Assembly (NCBI GenBank): GCA_947587115.1
Contig: CANPXY010000003.1
Location: 1 to 37,097, forward strand
Direction: 5' to 3'
DNA: 37,097 nucleotides
Source: an uncultured Bacilli bacterium
Lineage (GTDB): Bacteria > Bacillota_I > Bacilli_A > RF39 > UBA660
Made by a program: the position numbers and the translations under genes. Positions within the stretch are counted from its first letter, which is position 1. Every line of letters begins with the position of its first letter. The notes below the pieces were generated by a model that saw only the letters and a list, made by a program, of their open reading frames with translations, did not search any database and was not told the origin of the DNA. Shown here one piece after another: positions 802 to 37,097 of the stretch.

Positions 802-1344
802 CTAGTTCAAAACCTCATTTTTGTACTCTTGATACATCTTGCAGTACTTTTCCACCACACCTGGCTGAAATGGAACTTCCTTCTTGCGTACCAAATCGAT
901 CAAATTAGTAAGTTCTTGTTTTAAGATGACATCAATTTCTTTAGAATAGTTCATAATATTTTTGTGGTACCGATATTCTCCACGATCTAGGACTTTAAAA
1001 GACCCATCCGGAAATACTCGTAAATCTAAATCATAATCGATATATTTGATCGTTCCATCCGCAATGACAAACGGAGAAGCCATATTACAATAATAGTAAA
1101 TACCATCTGGTTTATACTGTCCAATCACGTTATACCACTTGTTCTTATAAAAATACATCACTGCCGGCTCTTTCGTTCTCCATACTCTACCATCAGACTC
1201 GACCACTTTAGTTCGCTTGTTCCCGAAAATCAGATAGTCATCGTGGATCTCTAACAGGACCGCTTCATCCCATTCCCTGTGAATCTTTCCATTATGTTTA
1301 TAGCTATGAATCTTATAACGCTTTCCTAATTTTAATTCATTCAT
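802..1344 (-). CDS. ygaC: DUF402/YgaC family nucleoside tri/diphosphate phosphatase
   Basis: IHSYKHNGKIHREWD, YYCNMASP and IDYDLDLRVFPDG motifs; 180 aa. Confidence 0.85.
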   Translation of the reverse strand: MNELKLGKRYKIHSYKHNGKIHREWDEAVLLEIHDDYLIFGNKRTKVVESDGRVWRTKEPAVMYFYKNKWYNVIGQYKPDGIYYYCNMASPFVIADGTIKYIDYDLDLRVFPDGSFKVLDRGEYRYHKNIMNYSKEIDVILKQELTNLIDLVRKKEVPFQPGVVEKYCKMYQEYKNEVLN

Positions 1345-1411
1345 GTTATTACCCCGTCTCTACCGTCTATTATAACCTATCTCGCTTCCTTTTTCAAATC
1401 TTTTAAAGCAA

Positions 1412-1567
1412 TTATCGTTTATGTAATGCTTGGTAACCCATCATAACCAAGAATAATAGACCAAAAAACAATACAATCCACAATGCTGGATTATCATAAT
1501 GATCGAAAATCCAATTCTTGAACTGATTAGACCAATCGGTTAAGGTTGTCCATAGATCCAATAACAA
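1412..1567 (-). CDS. Small single-pass membrane protein (51 aa), hypothetical
   Basis: SD AGGAAGGTGA, then TTG at 1567. Sequence MLLDLWTTLTDWSNQFKNWIFDHYDNPALWIVLFFGLLFLVMMGYQALHKR with a C-terminal TM helix and basic tail. Confidence 0.65.
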   Translation of the reverse strand: MLLDLWTTLTDWSNQFKNWIFDHYDNPALWIVLFFGLLFLVMMGYQALHKR

Positions 1568-1726
1568 AGTGATCACCTTCCTATATTTAGTATAACATAG
1601 AAAAATCAAAAAGCGAGGATTTTATCTTCTATATTATATAGAAAGGGCTCGATTGACTTTCCTACCTAAAATCGATATACTAAAACTAGTATGAAGTAAA
1701 ATGAAAAACAGAAAGAAGGAATCGCC

Positions 1727-3022
1727 ATGCAATTTACTACCCTATCTCCCAAAGAATTTACGGCCTTTGCTGATCAACATCCGCAAATTACCTTTCATCA
1801 GACAACATCTTGGGCCAAGTTAAAGAAAACCAATCACTGGCAAGAACACTATGTGGGGGTAAAAGAAAAAAAACAAGTCATTGCCGCATCTCTTCTTTTA
1901 GAGAAAACAACTCCTCTTGGCAAAAGCATCTTCTATGCTCCTCGTGGCTTTTTAATCGACTATGAAAATATCGAACTTTTAACGTTCTTTACGAACGAAG
2001 TTAAAAAATACGTCCAAGACCATGGCGGCATGTTCTTAAAAATTGATCCTTATGTCAGTTATCAAGAACGAGATCAGTTGGGTAACATCGTAGAGAATGG
2101 AACCAATCATAAAGACGTCGTAGATCATCTCAAAAAATTAGGTTACCATCACATGGGCTTTACGATGCATCAAGAGACTTTACAGCCACGTTGGATGTTT
2201 GTTCTTCCTATAAAAAATCATACCTACGAAGAAATTGCCCAAAACTTCGATAGTAAAACCAAACGAATTTTAAAGAAGAACGCCAAAATGCAAATCCAAG
2301 TACGGGAACTTACGAAAGAAGAGATCCCTCTATATAAAGAAATCATGCAGTCCACCAGCAATCGTAGAGAGTTCATTGATCGTCCTCTTTCCTATTATGA
2401 AAACATGTGGAATACTTTCCATAAGGATGGACATCTCAAAATCATGGTAGCGGAACTCCATGTTAAAAAGTACATAGCATCCTTGAAAAAAGAAATCAAG
2501 GAATTAGAAGAAGAATATCATACGAGAGAAGAAAGAAAGAAAATAGAGACTGTCAATGAAGAAAAATATTTAGCTAAACAACGACAGACCGAAGAAAAAT
2601 TAGCCAAAGTGCAAGAACAACTCGCTGAGATGGAAGCACTAAAAAAGGAACATGGGGACATCATTCCGCTTGGTGGCATGCTCTTCCTACTCTACGGCTC
2701 TGAAATCGTCTTCTTGATGGGAGGCTCTCTTGAAGAATTTCTACATTTCCAATCTTCCTACTCGATTCATGAACACATGATTGAGTACGCCATTAAAAAT
2801 CATTATGAAGTCTATAACTTCTATGGAATTACCGGAATATTCGATGAAAGAAATCCGCTCTATGGAATCTACTTTGCAAAAAAAGGATTTGGTGGAAAAG
2901 TGGTCGAACTAGTAGGAGAGTTTGATCTCATTACGAATAAAGCATACTATTATTTATATAAAGTTGCCTTTAAACTGTATCATGGCAGCAAAAATTTACT
3001 ACACCACATAAAAAAGAGTTGA
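1727..3022 (+). CDS. FemABX/MurMN family peptidoglycan cross-bridge aminoacyltransferase
   Basis: FHQTTSWAKLK, YAPRGFLIDY, LKIDPY, an internal coiled coil, YNFYGITG and KKGFGG..VELVGEFD. Confidence 0.92.
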   Translation: MQFTTLSPKEFTAFADQHPQITFHQTTSWAKLKKTNHWQEHYVGVKEKKQVIAASLLLEKTTPLGKSIFYAPRGFLIDYENIELLTFFTNEVKKYVQDHGGMFLKIDPYVSYQERDQLGNIVENGTNHKDVVDHLKKLGYHHMGFTMHQETLQPRWMFVLPIKNHTYEEIAQNFDSKTKRILKKNAKMQIQVRELTKEEIPLYKEIMQSTSNRREFIDRPLSYYENMWNTFHKDGHLKIMVAELHVKKYIASLKKEIKELEEEYHTREERKKIETVNEEKYLAKQRQTEEKLAKVQEQLAEMEALKKEHGDIIPLGGMLFLLYGSEIVFLMGGSLEEFLHFQSSYSIHEHMIEYAIKNHYEVYNFYGITGIFDERNPLYGIYFAKKGFGGKVVELVGEFDLITNKAYYYLYKVAFKLYHGSKNLLHHIKKS

Positions 3023-3041
3023 CTGTATGTCAACCTTTTTA
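3010..3041. terminator. Bidirectional intrinsic terminator between the femABX and ABC-F genes
   Basis: AAAAAGAGTTGAC-TGTAT-GTCAACCTTTTT hairpin with A and T tracts on both sides. Confidence 0.75.
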
Positions 3042-3042
3042 T

Positions 3043-4764
3043 TTACACCTTGTTTTGTTCTTTAGCAGACAATTCGTAATATACCTCTAATAATGATTCG
3101 ATCTCCTCCGTAGTCTTTGTAGGATCTGCCATTTCAGATTCGATCTTTCGCATTTGATTTTGAATAGATAGCGGTTCATTCAAAGACTTTCCGTCATGAA
3201 CCATGCCATCTTGCTTCAAAGCATATTCCTGATAGCCATCTTCGACTCGTCTAATTGTACCATTTTGAAATACAAAAACTTTATTAGTGACTTTTGATAA
3301 TAAATATTTATCATGACTGGCCAAAAGAATCGCACCCGGAAATTGACACAATGCTTTTTCAAGTTCTATTTTATTTGCCAAGTCAAGATGATTGGTAGGT
3401 TCATCTAAAACTAATAAATTATAATCATCTAAAATAATTTGAACTAATTTTAGTCTCATTCGCTGACCCAAACTCAATGTTCCAATTTTATTATTAAACA
3501 AAGATCTTTGAAATCCCATGTTTACTAGATTACTAAAGAAAAACTGTCTTGTTGTAGCATCATACTGATTAGACATTTCAAATACCGTTTTCTGATCATC
3601 CAAATCAAAAACATCTTGGCTCATATAAGCCATTTTTAAAGATGGGGTTTTCCAAATCTCTCCAGAATCAGCTTGTTCCTCGTTCATAATCAGTTTTATC
3701 AATGTAGATTTACCGCTTCCATTAGGACCAACAAGGCCAATCTTTTCGTTACTATTTACTACTAAATTTACATCCGAAAAAATTTTATGACTATCAAAAG
3801 ATTTAGATAAATCGGTAATACGAATGAGACAGTTCGCTCCACTAGAAAAACCTTGAAATCCAAATTTAATTTCTTTTTCCTCAAGTGGCTTCTCAATAAA
3901 ATCTTTTTTCATTTGCTCAAGACGAGTTTTTTTACTTTCAGCACTTTTTCCAATCTTTGCTGCTTTTCTTTGTGCATTCGTCTTAACACCTTTAACCTTC
4001 GCATCAGAACGACTGCCTCCTTGTCTACCAGCATCTCGTTCGCCTTTTTCGGACCATTGTTTCAATTTGGTGATTTCTCTTTCAATTCGTTTTTCCTGTT
4101 TTTGCTCTTGCTCATAGCGCTCTTTGAGCGCCTCTTTCTCCTGCTCTTTTTGCTCTTGATAAGCATCATAATTTCCATAATAAATCTTCAATTTTGCATT
4201 TTCAACTTCAACAATTTTATTCACAGTTTGATTGAGAAAATAACGATCATGAGAAACTACCAATACAGTACCTTTATAGTCATTCAAACGATGGATTAAC
4301 CATTCTATGGATTCAATGTCCACATGATTTGTCGGTTCATCTAAAAGTAAGATACTAGGATTAGTTGCCAAAATAGACGATAAAGCAATTTTTGTTTTTT
4401 CGCCACCACTTAAATTTTTTAACCGCTCATTTGTAAACTCAATAGTACGATCTAATTTTAATTCACTATTTAATTTAAGAAAATCGGATATGTTACCTTT
4501 ATCCGCACTCATATCCATAAAATCTTCAAGTGAATACTCTGTAGCTTGTTTTAAATATCCAATGCTACAACCTTCAGCAATTTCAATTTTTCCGTTGTCT
4601 GCCGTTATGCTTCCCATAATCAACTTCATCAAAGTAGACTTACCAGAACCATTGGAACCAACAACACCAATTTTTTCTCCTGCATTCACATCCAATCGAA
4701 CCTTTTCTAAAACTACATGTTCGCCAAAATGTTTACTGACATCCCGAATCTTTATAATTGACAT
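3043..4764 (-). CDS. ABC-F ATPase, ribosome-protection (VmlR-like ARE-ABCF) candidate
   Basis: Two NBDs (GSNGSGKST, GPNGSGKST; LSGGE and LSLGQ; LDEPTNH twice), no TM segments, a long interdomain linker KLKQWSEK...KKTRLE resembling VmlR LASWSEK...KQKRLE, and a C-terminal helical extension. Confidence 0.85.
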   Translation of the reverse strand: MSIIKIRDVSKHFGEHVVLEKVRLDVNAGEKIGVVGSNGSGKSTLMKLIMGSITADNGKIEIAEGCSIGYLKQATEYSLEDFMDMSADKGNISDFLKLNSELKLDRTIEFTNERLKNLSGGEKTKIALSSILATNPSILLLDEPTNHVDIESIEWLIHRLNDYKGTVLVVSHDRYFLNQTVNKIVEVENAKLKIYYGNYDAYQEQKEQEKEALKERYEQEQKQEKRIEREITKLKQWSEKGERDAGRQGGSRSDAKVKGVKTNAQRKAAKIGKSAESKKTRLEQMKKDFIEKPLEEKEIKFGFQGFSSGANCLIRITDLSKSFDSHKIFSDVNLVVNSNEKIGLVGPNGSGKSTLIKLIMNEEQADSGEIWKTPSLKMAYMSQDVFDLDDQKTVFEMSNQYDATTRQFFFSNLVNMGFQRSLFNNKIGTLSLGQRMRLKLVQIILDDYNLLVLDEPTNHLDLANKIELEKALCQFPGAILLASHDKYLLSKVTNKVFVFQNGTIRRVEDGYQEYALKQDGMVHDGKSLNEPLSIQNQMRKIESEMADPTKTTEEIESLLEVYYELSAKEQNKV

Positions 4765-4931
4765 GAGATCACCCCCTATTTTGTATAAAATAAATAATAA
4801 TTGTTAAACAATGTTTCCTATTCCTAAACATAAAGAGCATATATTATGAAATATAGAATGATTTTGATATAAATAATTATAACACAACTCAAAAATTTAT
4901 TGATGATATTGTATGGAATTTGCTTTTCAAT

Positions 4932-4972
4932 ATAAAAAACCAGTTGAATATCGAACTCAACTAGGTTTTTAT
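4932..4972 (-). terminator. Intrinsic terminator downstream of murJ
   Basis: ATAAAAAACCAGTTGA-loop-TCAACTAGGTTTTTAT inverted repeat. Confidence 0.7.
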
Positions 4973-31963: not shown

Positions 31964-34060
31964 TTAATTGTTTATAAATAATTGTTCTCCCTTTAGATCC
32001 ACTTTGACCGTAGTGCCATATTGAATATGATCCATCAATAATTCTTTAGCCAACATACTTTCAATAGTTTTGCTGACAAAGCGTTTTAATGGTCGTGCAC
32101 CATAGTTCACATCATATCCGTTCTCTAAGATATAAGAACGTGCTTCTTTGGTAAGTTCAATATGAATGTCCTGATCAGCAAGACGACGTTCGATATCATG
32201 AATCAATTTATCTAAGATCTCGTTCATAACTTCTTTACTCAACGGATTAAAGAAGATAATTTCATCAATTCGGTTGATAAATTCTGGACGGAAAGTCATC
32301 TGTAATTCTTTCATAACCAAGTCCTTTTTTCCCTCTAAGATGTGTTCACTACCCAAGTTGGAAGTCATGATGATGATCGTATTCTTAAAGTCTACTGTGC
32401 GACCATTAGAATCGGTTATTCTACCATCATCAAGAATCTGTAACAACAAGTTTAACACTTCTGGATGCGCTTTTTCAATTTCGTCGAACAAGACAATACT
32501 GTACGGATTACGACGAACTGCTTCTGTAAGCTGTCCTCCCTCTTCATAACCTACATATCCTGGAGGAGATCCGATCAGGCGTGAGACACTAAATTTTTCC
32601 ATGTACTCACTCATATCGATTCGAACCATGTGTTTTTCATCGTCGAACAATTCATAAGCTAAACTGCGTGCGACTTCGGTTTTACCAACACCAGTAGGAC
32701 CCAAGAAGATAAAAGAACCAATAGGTCGATTCGGATCTTTGATACCACTACGAGATTTCATAATAGCATCGCTCACTAAGTGAAGTGCTTCCTTTTGGCC
32801 CATGACTCGTTTTGCCAAATTGTCTTCCAAATGCAAAAGCTTTTCACGTTCTCCACTCATCAATTTGCTAAGTGGAATATTCGTCCATTTCGAAATAATT
32901 TCCGCAATGGATTCTTCAGTAACTGCGTCACTCAATATTTTATTTTCGTCAATTTTCTTTAATTCCTCAAGTTCCTTTTCAAGTTTTGGAATATCTCCGT
33001 GACGAAGTTTGGCTGCTTTTTCCAAGTCGTAAACATTCTCTGCTTGCTCCAAATCAAAGCGAGCTCTTTCAATCTCTTGTTTCTTGTTCTTAATTTGATC
33101 ATTGACGGTCTTCTCTTTTTCCCAAGCAACCTTCAACGCTTTTTCTTGCTCTTTTAAACGCTCTAATTCCTCGTCGATCTCTTCCCTACGTTTCTTCGAT
33201 AATTGATCTGTTTCCTTTTTAATTGCCTGACGCTCGATCTCAAGTTGCATGATCTCTCTTGTAAGGGTATCAAGTTCATTTGGAACAGAATCCATCTGTA
33301 CTCGAATCGTTGCGCATGCTTCATCGACCAAGTCGATGGCTTTATCTGGCAAGAAACGATCGGTAATATAGCGATTGGACAAAGTAGCAGCCGCAATCAA
33401 CGCCTTATCGTGAATTGTTACACCATGATGAATCTCAAAACGTTCCTTTAGACCACGCAAAATCGTAATCGTATCCATGACCGTAGGTTCACTAACTTTA
33501 ATTTTTTGAAAGCGTCGCTCTAAGGCTCCATCTTTCTCAATATACTTACGATATTCGTTGAGAGTCGTTGCTCCAATAACATGAATTTCACCACGTGCCA
33601 ACATTGGCTTCAAAATGTTAGAGGTATCCATTGCACCCTCCATGTTGCCAGAGCCTACAATCGTATGAATTTCATCGATAAACATGATGATTTCGCCTTC
33701 GCTTTTCTTGATTTCGCTCAATACATTTTTAAGACGCTCTTCAAATTCACCACGATATTTAGCACCAGCAATCAAACTGGCCATATCCAATTCCCAGATG
33801 ACTTTATCTTTTAGACTGCTAGGAACATCCCCTTTGACAATACGAAGAGCCAATCCTTCCACGATCGCCGTTTTTCCAACACCTGGTTCTCCGATTAAAA
33901 CGGGGTTGTTCTTCGTCTTACGTGATAAGATACGCGTAATACTTCGAATCTCTTCATCACGGCCGATGACTGGGTCAATTTTACCGTTTTTCACAGCTTC
34001 ATTGATATTTCGACCATACTTTTCTAATACGTTTTCTTCTTGATTGTTTTCTTGATACAT
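31964..34060 (-). CDS. clpB: ClpB-type disaggregase lacking the N-terminal domain
   Basis: [28 protein letters not shown], an M-domain coiled coil, GPTGVGKT and GARPLKR; no IGF ClpP-binding loop. Confidence 0.9.
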
Positions 34061-34086
34061 AATATTCACCTCTTTATTCGAATTCT

Positions 34087-34127
34087 ATTATACTCAATTT
34101 TTAGCACTTGTCAATATAGAGTGCTAA
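34087..34127 (-). promoter_or_regulatory. CIRCE (HrcA operator) overlapping the clpB -35
   Basis: TTAGCACTT-N9-GAGTGCTAA at 34101-34127 (one mismatch to consensus); TTGACA(34114-34109)-16-TATAAT(34092-34087). Confidence 0.93.
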
Positions 34128-34163
34128 AAACAGACAAAAAAAGACAGTATCTTAAGATACTGC

Positions 34164-35465
34164 CTACTTATTCGCTAATATTTCGATTGCTTTTTGTAAT
34201 TGATTATCCATCTCATCCGTAGGATTTTCGTAATAGGCATCATCAAGTTCTACTTCCACGGTCGGCTTTACACCGACACCATCGATCCAGTTTCCCTTTG
34301 GAGTCAGCCATTTCTGGGTCGTATATTTGATAGTCGCACCGCTTTTAAGTTCAAATGCTTTTTGAACAGTGCCCTTTCCATAAGAAGTGATACCGATAAT
34401 TTCGGAACCTTTGATCTCGTTTAATGCTGAAGCTAATATTTCAGAAGCAGAAGCACTGGCATGATTGATCAAGACAGCGATCTCATAATCGCGTTGCTCC
34501 TTGGTCCAATCATAAGTTGGCTCTTTAATTCCTTTCGTCTCGATCTGATATAAGATATCACCTTTTTTAAGAATCATCGCCAACATTTCAGATACTTGCG
34601 TCAAATGTCCACCTGGATTATCACGCACATCGATGATCAATCGGTCAATAGACTCTTTCTCTAACTTTTCTAGTTCAGTTTTAAACTGTTTGGAAGTATT
34701 AGAGGCAAAGATATCAATATCTAAATAACCAATTTTTTGATTGTTTCTCTCAAAAACTTTGGAAGTAACAGAAGTAAGTTCTACTTTATCACGTACGACG
34801 ACAAAATCCAAAGTCTCTTCACCTCTAGTTACGGTGATCTTTACCGTCGTGCCTTTGGTACCCTTGATCAAAGCTGAGATATCACTCAAGGCTTTCCCTT
34901 GGATATCCGTTCCATCTACCTGTTGAATTATATCGCCTACTTGTATCCCCGCCTTGCCTGCTGGAGAACCGTCAAATAGATAACTGATTTTTACAGTATC
35001 ATTTAAAAGTGTCATCTCCGCACCAATGCCGACATAACTACCCTCAACCTGCTCATTGAACGCTTCGCTTTCAGCAGCATCCATATAGGTAGAATGTGAA
35101 TCATTCAAATATTCAATCATTCCTTTGATTCCGGCATTCAACAGTTCATCCTGATCTAGTTCAAGATAATAATTATCCAAAATATTGTGGTAAGTATCTA
35201 CAAATTCTTCAAGATCATCTGAAATCATCTCTAATCCCGTAGAACTTTTTTGTTTTTCCCTAGAATAAGTCACCGCACTTCCGATAAGGGCTCCAAATAA
35301 AATAGCAATAATCATGATGATAATGACCTCTAAGGTATTAAAGCCCGAACGCTTTTCAACGACGATTTCTCTTACATCATCAGGAACTTCCTCAACTTTT
35401 GAAGATGTTTTTTGACGTTTGGGTTTTACAGTTGTTTTTTTCGTGTTTTCCCCTTGATCTTTCAT
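34164..35465 (-). CDS. ctpA: S41 carboxy-terminal processing protease with PDZ domain
   Basis: YVGIG, SPAGKAGIQVGD, IDVRDNPGG, SASASEI, SYGKGTVQ and WLTPKG. Confidence 0.93.
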   Translation of the reverse strand: MKDQGENTKKTTVKPKRQKTSSKVEEVPDDVREIVVEKRSGFNTLEVIIIMIIAILFGALIGSAVTYSREKQKSSTGLEMISDDLEEFVDTYHNILDNYYLELDQDELLNAGIKGMIEYLNDSHSTYMDAAESEAFNEQVEGSYVGIGAEMTLLNDTVKISYLFDGSPAGKAGIQVGDIIQQVDGTDIQGKALSDISALIKGTKGTTVKITVTRGEETLDFVVVRDKVELTSVTSKVFERNNQKIGYLDIDIFASNTSKQFKTELEKLEKESIDRLIIDVRDNPGGHLTQVSEMLAMILKKGDILYQIETKGIKEPTYDWTKEQRDYEIAVLINHASASASEILASALNEIKGSEIIGITSYGKGTVQKAFELKSGATIKYTTQKWLTPKGNWIDGVGVKPTVEVELDDAYYENPTDEMDNQLQKAIEILANK

Positions 35466-36302: not shown

Positions 36303-37022
36303 TTATTTCATCGTTGGAATGACACTGATCGATTGGGCAATTTCGATTAATTCGATCTGATCCATTACATCACTTACCAAGTAATATTCAATCCCATTCG
36401 AAGTCCAAGTCAACGAATTATCAGTAATTGCCCCAATGGTATCGATAAACATATAAGGTTCTCCATAAGTCGGAATCACAGTAAACTCATCTTCTTTCCC
36501 TGCCGTCTCTTCTACTAACAAGAACGGCTTTTCGCCATCAAAAGATAAGATCACTCGTTCCCCATTCGTCTTCTCTACTCGATTTTGATCCGTTAACTTT
36601 GTTCCCGTCGGTATATAAAGTGGGTAGATAATATCTTCGATACTTCCCGTCTCGATCACGTCTTCCACAATAACCGAAGATTTCATGATTTCATCTAACA
36701 CAAAATGTTGGTCATCAAAATTCGGTTTCATGTCAATACTAGTAAATATCATCTTCATCTGTGGAACATCATTGTCACTCAATACTTCTACGGTCTTAAA
36801 ATTCAAATTTTTATCCAATGTAATTGTCTGCTTTACCAATTTTCGATTATTTGGATAATTCACACTCGTCGTAAAAGTATAGCTCTTTCCATCATCTTTA
36901 AACGTTTTGTTATTATCATTTTTTATATCATTTAAAAGTGACTGCAAAAGATAAATTTGTGAATTGTTGTATGGCCAATCGCTTTGAAACTTGAAGCTCT
37001 TGTTCAAAGAAGGTGTAAGTAC
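36303..37022 (-). CDS. ydcC: C-terminal ~70% of sporulation lipoprotein YdcC/SsdC (MucB/RseB-LolA-like); N-terminus absent
   Basis: VLTPSLNKSFKFQSDWPYNNSQIYLLQSL matches B. subtilis YdcC VLTPSLNKSFRFQSDWPNNSSQVYLFESL (recalled). There is an in-frame TGA at 37031-37029 and no signal peptide or lipobox. Confidence 0.85.
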   Translation of the reverse strand, partial: VLTPSLNKSFKFQSDWPYNNSQIYLLQSLLNDIKNDNNKTFKDDGKSYTFTTSVNYPNNRKLVKQTITLDKNLNFKTVEVLSDNDVPQMKMIFTSIDMKPNFDDQHFVLDEIMKSSVIVEDVIETGSIEDIIYPLYIPTGTKLTDQNRVEKTNGERVILSFDGEKPFLLVEETAGKEDEFTVIPTYGEPYMFIDTIGAITDNSLTWTSNGIEYYLVSDVMDQIELIEIAQSISVIPTMK

Positions 37023-37097
37023 TATAACTCACCAAAGTTTTAAACTTTCTATCCTTATTTATATATAGTACCTTATTTTTTAATTATTTTTATTATC

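Follow-up and report, generated by a model that had tools for sequence, protein, structure and literature searches.

The DNA analysed here, a stretch of 37,097 nt that we call the window, is the entire contig CANPXY010000003.1 (contig C3 of genome G000, GenBank assembly GCA_947587115.1) of an uncultured Bacilli bacterium (RF39; UBA660), and its last 77 nt (37021-37097) almost certainly represent attR, the right attachment site of a large serine recombinase (LSR) element inserted in an SsdC/YdcC-type gene, as judged by comparison with related genomes. We propose that the element occupies a fixed site with a GT core and that the gene is rebuilt by its excision during sporulation, a reading to which we assign a probability of roughly 0.6. 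Its parts differ in strength. Alignments of occupied and empty sites make it very probable that a MucB/RseB-like gene carries an LSR element that is cleanly excisable and currently active. That excision is timed to sporulation would be slightly better than an even bet; this part draws on the Spo0A and SpoIVA genes of the host, on promoter motifs, on a predicted directionality factor and on sister elements in spoIVA.

The interrupted gene in the window

Assembly G000 comprises 1.18 Mb in 108 contigs with 36% G+C, and its completeness and contamination are 93% and 3%, respectively. The 3′ part of the SsdC/YdcC-type lipoprotein gene lies on the minus strand at 36303-37022 as an open run of 239 codons and a stop. 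A first-pass annotation of the same DNA had described these codons as intact and the homology as starting abruptly at VLTPSLNKSF, and both observations hold: in a tblastn comparison of four full-length relatives with the genome, matches run from residue ~92/101 to the end only (window 37028-36306), with 62-81% identity and no gaps. A protein search returned thousands of relatives, the nearest full-length ones being 326-354 aa long. Compared with the intact MucB/RseB-like lipoprotein gene of ~332 aa, the window copy misses the ~92 first codons and with them the signal peptide, the lipobox and the first beta-strands. At the break point, where full-length relatives read ...NHEQIILKNxDGVYV|LTPSLNKSF, the minus-strand frame of the window reads ...SLKLW*VIVLTPSLNKSF..., or SLKLW*VIV|LTPSLNKSF when translated across the junction, and it includes the in-frame TGA three codons ahead of the GTA (TGA GTT ATA GTA) that had been noted before.

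The crossover core, the dinucleotide GT on the gene strand (37021-37022, minus strand), is common to attB, attL and attR and falls in the Val codon of the motif DGVYV|LTPS. It is followed by the element-side arm of attR, AAAGTTTAAAACTTTGGTGAGTTATA (37023-37048, minus strand), which would form half of a ~54-bp dyad-symmetric attP and contains the palindrome AAAGTTT-n-AAACTTT at 37034-37048; the earlier reading had picked out this palindrome, which turns out to be the outer part of the recombinase arm. The remaining right end of the element (37049-37097, minus strand) holds an ACTATA box and the end of an element gene, whose final five codons and stop (...DNKNN*) lie at 37080-37097. The sequence ends 75 nt past the junction because the assembly itself stops there. 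The inverted arms that the first-pass annotation had placed around the junction are real insofar as a perfect 8-nt pair, GTACTATA/TATAGTAC, is present at 37019-37026 and 37064-37071, the latter holding the ACTATA box. However, this pair is not the repeat that matters for recombination: it includes bases of the host gene and is reduced to 6 nt (ACTATA/TATAGT) in the same-genus relative G001, and the recombination-relevant partner of the arm at 37023-37048 is the far (attL) end, which is visible only in relatives. The ACTATA box itself, ~30 nt inside the right end and pairing with TATAGT at the junction, is kept in several elements of LSR clade A (L034-L037, L064 and L068) with no counterpart at their attL ends; its role may be that of an outer contact for the recombinase or of a -10-like box.

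A 5′ half of the gene was not found in G000 by tblastn with the four full-length relatives, the best match (C2:8735-8878) being the signal peptide of a thioredoxin-like lipoprotein. Taken formally, this result contradicts the intervening element that the first-pass annotation had proposed. However, the upstream neighbours of the gene seen in the same-genus genomes G001 and G002 are also missing from the G000 bin, so that the missing 5′ half is uninformative and explained by the incomplete assembly. The remainder of the element was likewise not found in the bin, and a search of G000 with the sequence of the far-end arm gave one exact match, at the window junction, with two-mismatch matches no commoner than in the control.

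Split genes and recombinases in related genomes

The gene was present in 42 of 61 related genomes and was split at the same residue in four of them, namely in G000, G001, G020 and G037, a comparison with relatives that the first-pass annotation had suggested. The two halves are on separate contigs in G001, which belongs to the same genus, and on one contig, 6.8 kb apart and on the same strand, in G037, a member of another family of the same order; a third genome of the genus, G002, has an uninterrupted gene. Within the family, 3 of 34 gene-bearing genomes are split at the codon of the window, and about 10 of 120 database protein clusters start at the junction. The family-wide search for the gene covered 401 family genomes, for which the best 150 matches were listed. 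A further family genome, G182, shows the same split across two contigs (C24:17474-18199 and C54:19-324).

Beside the 3′ half, on the strand of the gene, both G037 and G001 encode an LSR of 530-534 aa (52% mutual identity) with the domains PF00239, PF07508 and PF13408 (resolvase, recombinase and zinc ribbon). These two relatives thus provide both the recombinase and the matching repeat at the other end that had been anticipated. A search of one genome per species with two LSR queries gave 71 loci (LSR identity 44-100%) in uncultured gut Bacilli, whose record titles name rabbit, chicken, ruminant, human and other sources, and the motif YLRLSRED was invariant among 40 LSR sequences. In 56 of the 71 loci the LSR is followed downstream, on the same strand, by the 3′ half at a distance of 29-3341 nt (median 833), while in 13 of the remaining 15 the contig ends within ~1.05 kb. 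The 5′ half was seen upstream in 31 loci and both halves in 26, and a single fixed insertion site with a GT core was shared by 56 of the 71. The proposal of an att-type end of an intervening element is therefore borne out by relatives, which show an LSR, inverted arms around GT and the 5′ half 2.8-11 kb upstream. The accompanying suggestion of an invertible element is not, because both gene halves lie on the same strand in direct orientation.

Attachment sites and restoration of the reading frame

Occupied and empty sites can be aligned base by base. The attB of G002 reads GGAGTTTAT-GT-TTTGACACC and the attL of G001 GGTGTATAT-GT-TATAACTCACCAAAGTACGCAACTTT, and the attR of G001 and of the window follows the form AAAGTTTAAAACTTTGGTGAGTTATA-GT-(TTTA/ACTT)ACACC. 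From its end up to the junction (~70 nt), the window is nearly identical to the element end of G001, at which a gene with a Bro-N domain terminates. The two ends of the element are reverse complements of each other around GT, with perfect 16-nt inverted repeats in G001 and the arms AAAGTTnnnnACTTTGGTGAGTTATA and TATAACTCACCAAAGTnnnnAACTTT flanking the core; an excised circle would therefore carry a palindromic attP of ~54 bp. The arm at attR occurs in 49 relatives and its reverse complement, TATAACTCACCAAAGT...AACTTT, stands at attL. Across the junction tables (49 attR and 26 attL sites) GT is invariant, and the arms vary by element lineage yet co-vary, staying mutually complementary; in all 19 loci having both junctions, GT is found at the attR junction. 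The target site is itself an imperfect dyad, GATGGTGT..GT..ACACCATC, coding for D-G-V...T-P-S. The predicted attP, dyad-symmetric over ~54 bp and with a GT core, matches the anatomy of LSR sites.

The 19 elements that could be measured are 2.8-11.0 kb long. When the two gene halves were joined at GT in silico, an open frame of ~332-397 aa resulted in each of the 16 loci whose two halves are complete, two of these frames needing a TTG start as judged by eye; the three further measured loci are interrupted by contig ends. Moreover, all 46 of the 3′ halves found by motif in relatives reach a stop after 233-313 aa, and none is decayed.

Activity and horizontal movement of the element

Comparison of the window with contigs from public sequencing runs, for which assembled contigs only were used, revealed both states of the site. 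A 330-nt contig of run X2 equals window positions 36825-37019 with one difference and then continues with codons for ILKNTDGVYV; it shows the empty site, an uninterrupted allele belonging to the species of the window. In X3, an independent run of another study, the window junction was found with 0 differences over 37009-37097 (12 nt of the gene and 77 nt of the element), and in run X20 the identical element end (37021-37097) adjoins another host allele. Run X1, in which the window was best represented, contains a very similar element-end contig with three differences in 71 nt that begins exactly at 37021 and has a depth of 9.8, compared with 2.4-4.4 for the gene. This ratio suggests that the X1 sample contains the element in several copies or hosts, which would explain why the assembly stopped 75 nt past the junction. 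No attB contig was seen in X1, where the depth of the gene is only 2.4-4.4. Among database proteins, five of ten short proteins of the junction type are 98-100% identical to a full-length protein.

The relatedness of the recombinases does not follow that of the host genes, with a Spearman coefficient of 0.14 over 861 pairs. LSR pairs that are 93-99.8% identical reside in hosts whose 3′ halves are 37-98% identical, the median host identity being 54% for LSR pairs of at least 90% identity. The converse also occurs, with hosts 87-88% identical and LSRs merely 74% identical. Near-identical recombinases in divergent hosts therefore indicate that the element moves horizontally between genera.

Identity of the interrupted gene and its sporulation context

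A model predicted for the full-length relative P0002 (pLDDT, the predicted local distance difference test, 84.6; pTM, the predicted template-modelling score, 0.76) had its best whole-length matches in the PDB to RseB (2v42, 2v43, 3m4w, 2p4b) and MucB (6in8, 6in9, 6jau), with E-values of ~1e-11 to 9e-10 over 309-323 columns; the TM-scores were low (0.25-0.43), which we attribute to domain orientation. A match to LolA covers only the N-terminal domain of this model. Full-length relatives carry a signal peptide and a lipobox Cys. Scans of the 3′ fragment against Pfam and NCBIfam returned no family, and the family name on database relatives is PF27667 (UCP033729). The label SsdC/YdcC-type, which goes back to the first-pass annotation and is tentative, is consistent with fold, size, promoter motif and co-occurrence with spoIVA.

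The host appears to have kept a sporulation programme. Profile matches over the cut-offs were obtained in G000 for Spo0A_C (138 bits, C19:15970-16281) and SpoIVA (718 bits, C36:2233-3705), both profiles also matching the B. subtilis positive control, and the spoIVA gene of G000 is uninterrupted. A genome of ~1.2 Mb thus retains Spo0A and SpoIVA. In a small sample of genomes that are kin, SpoIVA was missing in 9 of 10 family genomes without a match to the gene (94-98% complete) and present in 5 of 5 with the gene. Since the family genomes that lack the gene mostly lack SpoIVA too, the lineage seems to have undergone repeated loss of sporulation.

Upstream of the gene, many genera share the motif TTATTCATGAATATT-N13-CCATATAAT, ~25-30 nt ahead of the start. 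A strict sigma-E-type pattern (of the type GAATATT-N13-CATATAAT) occurs in 16 of 36 distinct gene-upstream regions, compared with an average of 0.09 in shuffled sequences, and has 11 matches in the whole G000 genome, among them one 5′ of an open reading frame (ORF) that is SpoVS-like by eye and one near spo0A. The spoIVA gene of G000 carries TCATATT-N13-CATAAAGT. From the RseB/MucB fold, the sigma-E-like motif and the co-occurrence with SpoIVA, we infer that the interrupted gene is a mother-cell gene.

A candidate directionality factor and the timing of excision

Besides variable cargo, the elements carry at or near the right end a constant module on the strand of the gene, consisting of an acidic ORF of 33-52 aa and the LSR of 514-534 aa. 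The small ORF, which ends 1-99 nt (mostly 9-12 nt) ahead of the LSR start, was found in 54 of 62 loci with sufficient upstream sequence and in both LSR clades; its consensus in clade A is YKVNNIF..G.T.NELIS.FLLSFLD, and no Pfam family matched it at E-values up to 10. The smallest elements (2.8-3.6 kb) are made up of the small ORF, the LSR and one unrelated gene, and in the lineage of the window a Bro-N-domain gene sits between the LSR and attR; the final 18 nt of the window close an ORF of this kind.

A complex of the small protein with the last 400 residues of the LSR was predicted with a score of 0.67, compared with 0.00 for the best control. The mark of 0.67 was reached by 116 of 157 solved complexes and by 2 of 215 mismatched pairs, which are rough counts obtained with own alignments. 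The runs agreed in at least 78% of contacts, and the partner had a pLDDT of at least 59. Predicted contacts comprise beta-strand pairing with the C-terminal strand of the LSR (519-530) as well as residues 375-406 and 488-511, which were placed on the coiled coil according to the domain layout of LSRs instead of a model of this LSR. Known directionality factors are described as binding at the junction of DBD2 and the coiled coil (PMC12286644, excerpt). We regard the 33-52-aa protein as a candidate recombination directionality factor that is predicted to bind the LSR.

In clade A, the sequence upstream of the small ORF has the form ...TTTTACAAAATAATTAcaatgttaggaCATATACATTTATAGAGGTG..ATG, in which AAATAAT is followed after 13 nt by a CATA-type -10 box, the leader being very short, and a CATATACAT-type motif is conserved there. 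A loose sigma-E pattern was found upstream of the small ORF in 20 of 34 regions, compared with 0.9 in shuffles. In minimal elements the module starts only 60-90 nt after attL on the strand of the gene, and the gene's own promoter could therefore read into the module. A sister element with the same module was found in spoIVA. The spoIVA gene of G108 is split at a Trp codon (...VRTP|WYDE...) by a 2.6-kb element (L098, G108:C2:71800-77200, positions 833-4949) that encodes a Fic-domain-like protein (by eye), a 39-aa member of the small-ORF family and an LSR of 514 aa, with the direct repeat ACTCCCTG at both junctions and inverted arms. The spoIVA gene of G012 (L099/L100) is interrupted at this codon too, its halves lying at two contig ends.

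We propose a mechanism in which the LSR alone would integrate the circular element into the gene. In the sporulating mother cell, the small protein would act as a recombination directionality factor. It would be made together with the LSR from the CATA-type (sigma-E-like) promoter or, in minimal elements, the module would be expressed by read-through from the gene's own sigma-E-like promoter. The small protein would switch the LSR to excision between attL and attR, and the gene would be rebuilt in the mother cell, with the element kept in the forespore chromosome. The element also spreads horizontally between genera. A bolder version, which we hold to be distinctly doubtful, is that a ‘mini-skin’ family, defined by a new type of directionality factor of 33-52 aa and a TnpX-related LSR, may have colonised several mother-cell genes in uncultured gut spore-formers with ~1-Mb genomes, the SsdC-type gene and spoIVA among them, being excised under sigma-E and spread by lysis. 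As the mother cell lyses, excision would also release circular copies and thus offer a route of spread, and such circles would explain near-identical recombinases in hosts that are only 37-66% identical in the target gene.

Points against sporulation-timed excision and alternative explanations

Several points weigh against the proposal that the gene is rebuilt during sporulation. The window itself contains no recombinase, small ORF, attL or 5′ half. The joined junctions that the first-pass annotation had suggested looking for were found in part: the contigs from public runs yielded the attB-type allele in X2, but neither an attP junction nor attB beside attL or attR in one sample was seen in these assembled contigs. 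Given the high mobility of the element, the intact gene halves may only mean that insertion was recent, and not that they are under selection. The sequences compared are related by descent, so that the counts given here overstate independence. As for the gene, orthology with SsdC is putative; Pfam assigned no family to a full-length relative, for which NCBIfam gave weak sub-cut-off matches to GerS and LolB. The promoter patterns were built on what we take to be the sigma-E and sigma-K consensus, none of the 34 regions upstream of the small ORF has the strict sigma-E pattern, and the clade B LSRs and the spoIVA element are without the upstream motif of clade A. Unless some regulation that was not seen here intervenes, a directionality factor co-transcribed with the LSR would impede integration following transfer. 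By sequence, the closest solved relative of the LSR is the catalytic domain of TnpX (E 2e-26), and the LSR has a weak DUF4368 tail. TnpX excises and inserts without a known directionality factor and is not known to have a link to sporulation.

Some of these points are also what one would expect of a plain Tn4451/TnpX-type element that knocks out the gene while resident and excises sporadically for transfer, with no role in sporulation. The kinship of the LSR with TnpX, the strong horizontal spread between genera, the presence/absence polymorphism inside species and the recombinase operon without a strict sigma-E pattern upstream all fit such an element. Moreover, loss of SsdC in B. subtilis is described as mild, causing rounder spores and slower germination (PMC7769602, excerpt), so that a plain knockout of the gene could be tolerated. 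However, in 56 of 71 loci the element occupies one fixed site around a GT core, unlike Tn4451 with its many GA-type sites; no mobilisation gene was seen in the listed minimal elements of 2.8-3.6 kb, although no systematic relaxase scan of the cargo was made; and all 46 of the 3′ halves from relatives are free of decay. Co-occurrence with spoIVA and a sigma-E-like promoter mark the target gene, and the partner protein is predicted to bind where directionality factors bind. In addition, the sister element with the same module splits spoIVA in a host whose genome has kept the other genes of the programme, and sporulation is not known to proceed in the absence of spoIVA. Taking both sides together, we consider the plain transposon-like element possible but on balance unlikely.

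The other alternatives carry far less weight. An SPbeta-like prophage integrated in the gene is suggested by the matches of phrog_95 (phage integrase) to the LSR and of phrog_15286 to the Bro-N gene, and known interruptions of sporulation genes are often prophages; we judge it very unlikely for elements of merely 2.8-11.0 kb in which no capsid, tail, terminase or other phage structural genes were seen among the listed cargo, all six cargo ORFs of the G037 element being without a PHROG match and having at most one weak Pfam match. That the contig end is chimeric or mis-binned and the gene not truly interrupted could be argued from a junction 75 nt from the contig end, a bin without the 5′ half or the rest of the element, and an intact allele in the species, but it is exceedingly improbable given the identical junction in the independent run X3, the same junction architecture in 49 other assemblies and a break that falls exactly on the GT core beside a conserved recombinase arm. 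The first-pass annotation had itself offered a naturally split gene, in which the 3′ part is expressed from a TACTAT -10 box, a GGTGAG ribosome-binding site and a non-canonical start. GGTGAG does stand 6-7 nt ahead of ATA GTA, and gene callers assign starts such as MCVIVLTPS in relatives; yet GGTGAG belongs to the conserved arm that recurs as its reverse complement at attL, the fragment would have neither signal peptide nor lipobox and would miss the four initial strands of the LolA-like barrel, no in-frame ATG, GTG or TTG occurs between the TGA and the junction in the window, and intact alleles exist, including one in the same species, which together make this explanation hardly credible. Interruption by an excisable LSR element, with the gene rebuilt during sporulation, is therefore the reading that we prefer.

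Neighbouring genes and related sequences

On the minus strand of the window, 3′ of the split gene (31964-35465), lie genes named by eye from their translations as a 185-aa membrane protein, a 433-aa S41/CtpA-like peptidase and a 701-aa ClpB-like ATPase; the membrane-protein and peptidase genes of this neighbourhood are common to the intact locus of G002. Elsewhere in G000, a homologue of the Bro-N gene was considered as part of the element and rejected for its chromosomal context: this paralogue (C102:1011-1877) is a full copy of 289 aa with 71% DNA identity. In G001, a 97-aa Bro-N fragment is located directly 3′ of the split gene (L015 290-583). The only full-length LSR of G000 (C76:2420-3961, minus strand; 514 aa) was likewise rejected as the enzyme of the window element, being 38% identical and located elsewhere. 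It is 36-38% identical to the ssdC-type LSRs and appears closer by eye to the spoIVA-type LSR; its neighbours are a 774-aa ORF resembling surface proteins and a partial gene (195 aa) for a substrate-binding protein.

In G001, PnuC-like, histidine-phosphatase and CutA genes lie in the interval from attL to the LSR (L015 4710-5901, L016 1043-1457). Their homologues in G000 (C1:13953-16514, 78-80% DNA identity) are flanked by dnaG/rpoD-like genes on one side and an RNase J-like gene on the other (names by eye), in what is an ordinary part of the chromosome. This arrangement could be due to cargo capture, a rearrangement or a mis-join of the bin.

Implications and comparison with known systems

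Sporulation genes known to be split by excisable elements are sigK, spsM, spoVFB, spoVR, gerE and yabG, and the interrupted gene described here would extend this short list. Among uncultured gut Bacilli that keep a sporulation programme in genomes of close to 1 Mb, the element is common and mobile. With one recombinase, one candidate factor and a defined attB and ~54-bp attP, it appears well suited to tests of directionality, and the elements are candidate sources of recombinase/att pairs for use as tools. For the annotation of metagenome bins, ‘truncated’ LolA-like genes and contig breaks at this codon would signal an element instead of gene decay.

SsdC (YdcC) of B. subtilis is described as a sigma-E-controlled, MucB/RseB-like mother-cell protein of 338 aa that influences spore shape, with homologues in 97 Bacillales and 11 Erysipelotrichales (PMC7769602, excerpt). 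The proteins studied here resemble it in size (326-354 aa), in their N-terminal membrane anchor and in a two-domain RseB/MucB-like fold (PMC7769602, excerpt), as well as in a sigma-E-type promoter motif and the restriction to spore-formers. They differ in having a lipobox Cys, whereas a transmembrane segment is predicted for SsdC in that account of 2020 (PMC7769602); a lipoproteome paper of 2026 does call SsdC a lipoprotein (PMC13068155, excerpt).

In skinCd of Clostridioides difficile, the LSR CD1231 works with CD1234, a 72-aa factor controlled by sigma-E and SpoIIID (PMC5025042, excerpt). The small acidic factor, its short leader behind a mother-cell-type promoter and the restoration of a reading frame by excision are shared with the elements proposed here. 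However, skinCd targets sigK and holds 19 genes, and the gene of CD1234 is separate and separately regulated, CD1231 being constitutive (PMC5025042, excerpt), whereas factor and LSR here are seemingly co-transcribed. The sequences are unrelated beyond the LSR family. SPbeta is a 134-kb active prophage and skin a 48-kb defective one, in contrast to the elements of 3-11 kb studied here, in which no phage genes were seen. In concept, SPbeta in spsM (SprA/SprB) and skin in sigK (SpoIVCA) of B. subtilis are the same as what we propose (PMC4191935, excerpt). The clostridial Tn4451 and Tn4453 share with our elements a small, non-phage nature and excision as circles, and their TnpX is the nearest solved relative of the LSR. 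Tn4451 uses GA cores at many sites and carries mobilisation functions, TnpZ and RSA, on the element. Here, one fixed GT site in one gene is used, and no mobilisation gene was seen in the minimal elements.

The closest parallel is gin, the gerE-intervening element of Bacillus cereus ATCC 10987, with the LSR GirC and the 6.5-kDa directionality factor GirX (PMC5595907, excerpt). Like the elements described here, gin is not a phage and splits a coding sequence, that of a mother-cell sporulation gene (a probable one in our case), combines an LSR with a very small accessory protein, and has att sites with inverted arms around a central dinucleotide; its near-identity between strains is taken in that account to reflect horizontal transfer by a route that the authors leave open (PMC5595907, excerpt). 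In contrast to gin, the target here is an SsdC-type lipoprotein gene instead of gerE, the hosts are uncultured gut Bacilli with ~1-Mb genomes, and the elements are as small as 2.8 kb with one recombinase, where the published excerpt on gin gives three. The small protein, recognised here from sequence, is encoded directly 5′ of the LSR, apparently in one operon. No report linking ydcC/ssdC to a recombinase or an intervening element was found in the literature covered, the supplementary lists of Abe and Suzuki being outside its scope. Within the skin/gin class, the SsdC/YdcC-type gene is a new target, in a new host group, of an unusually small element.

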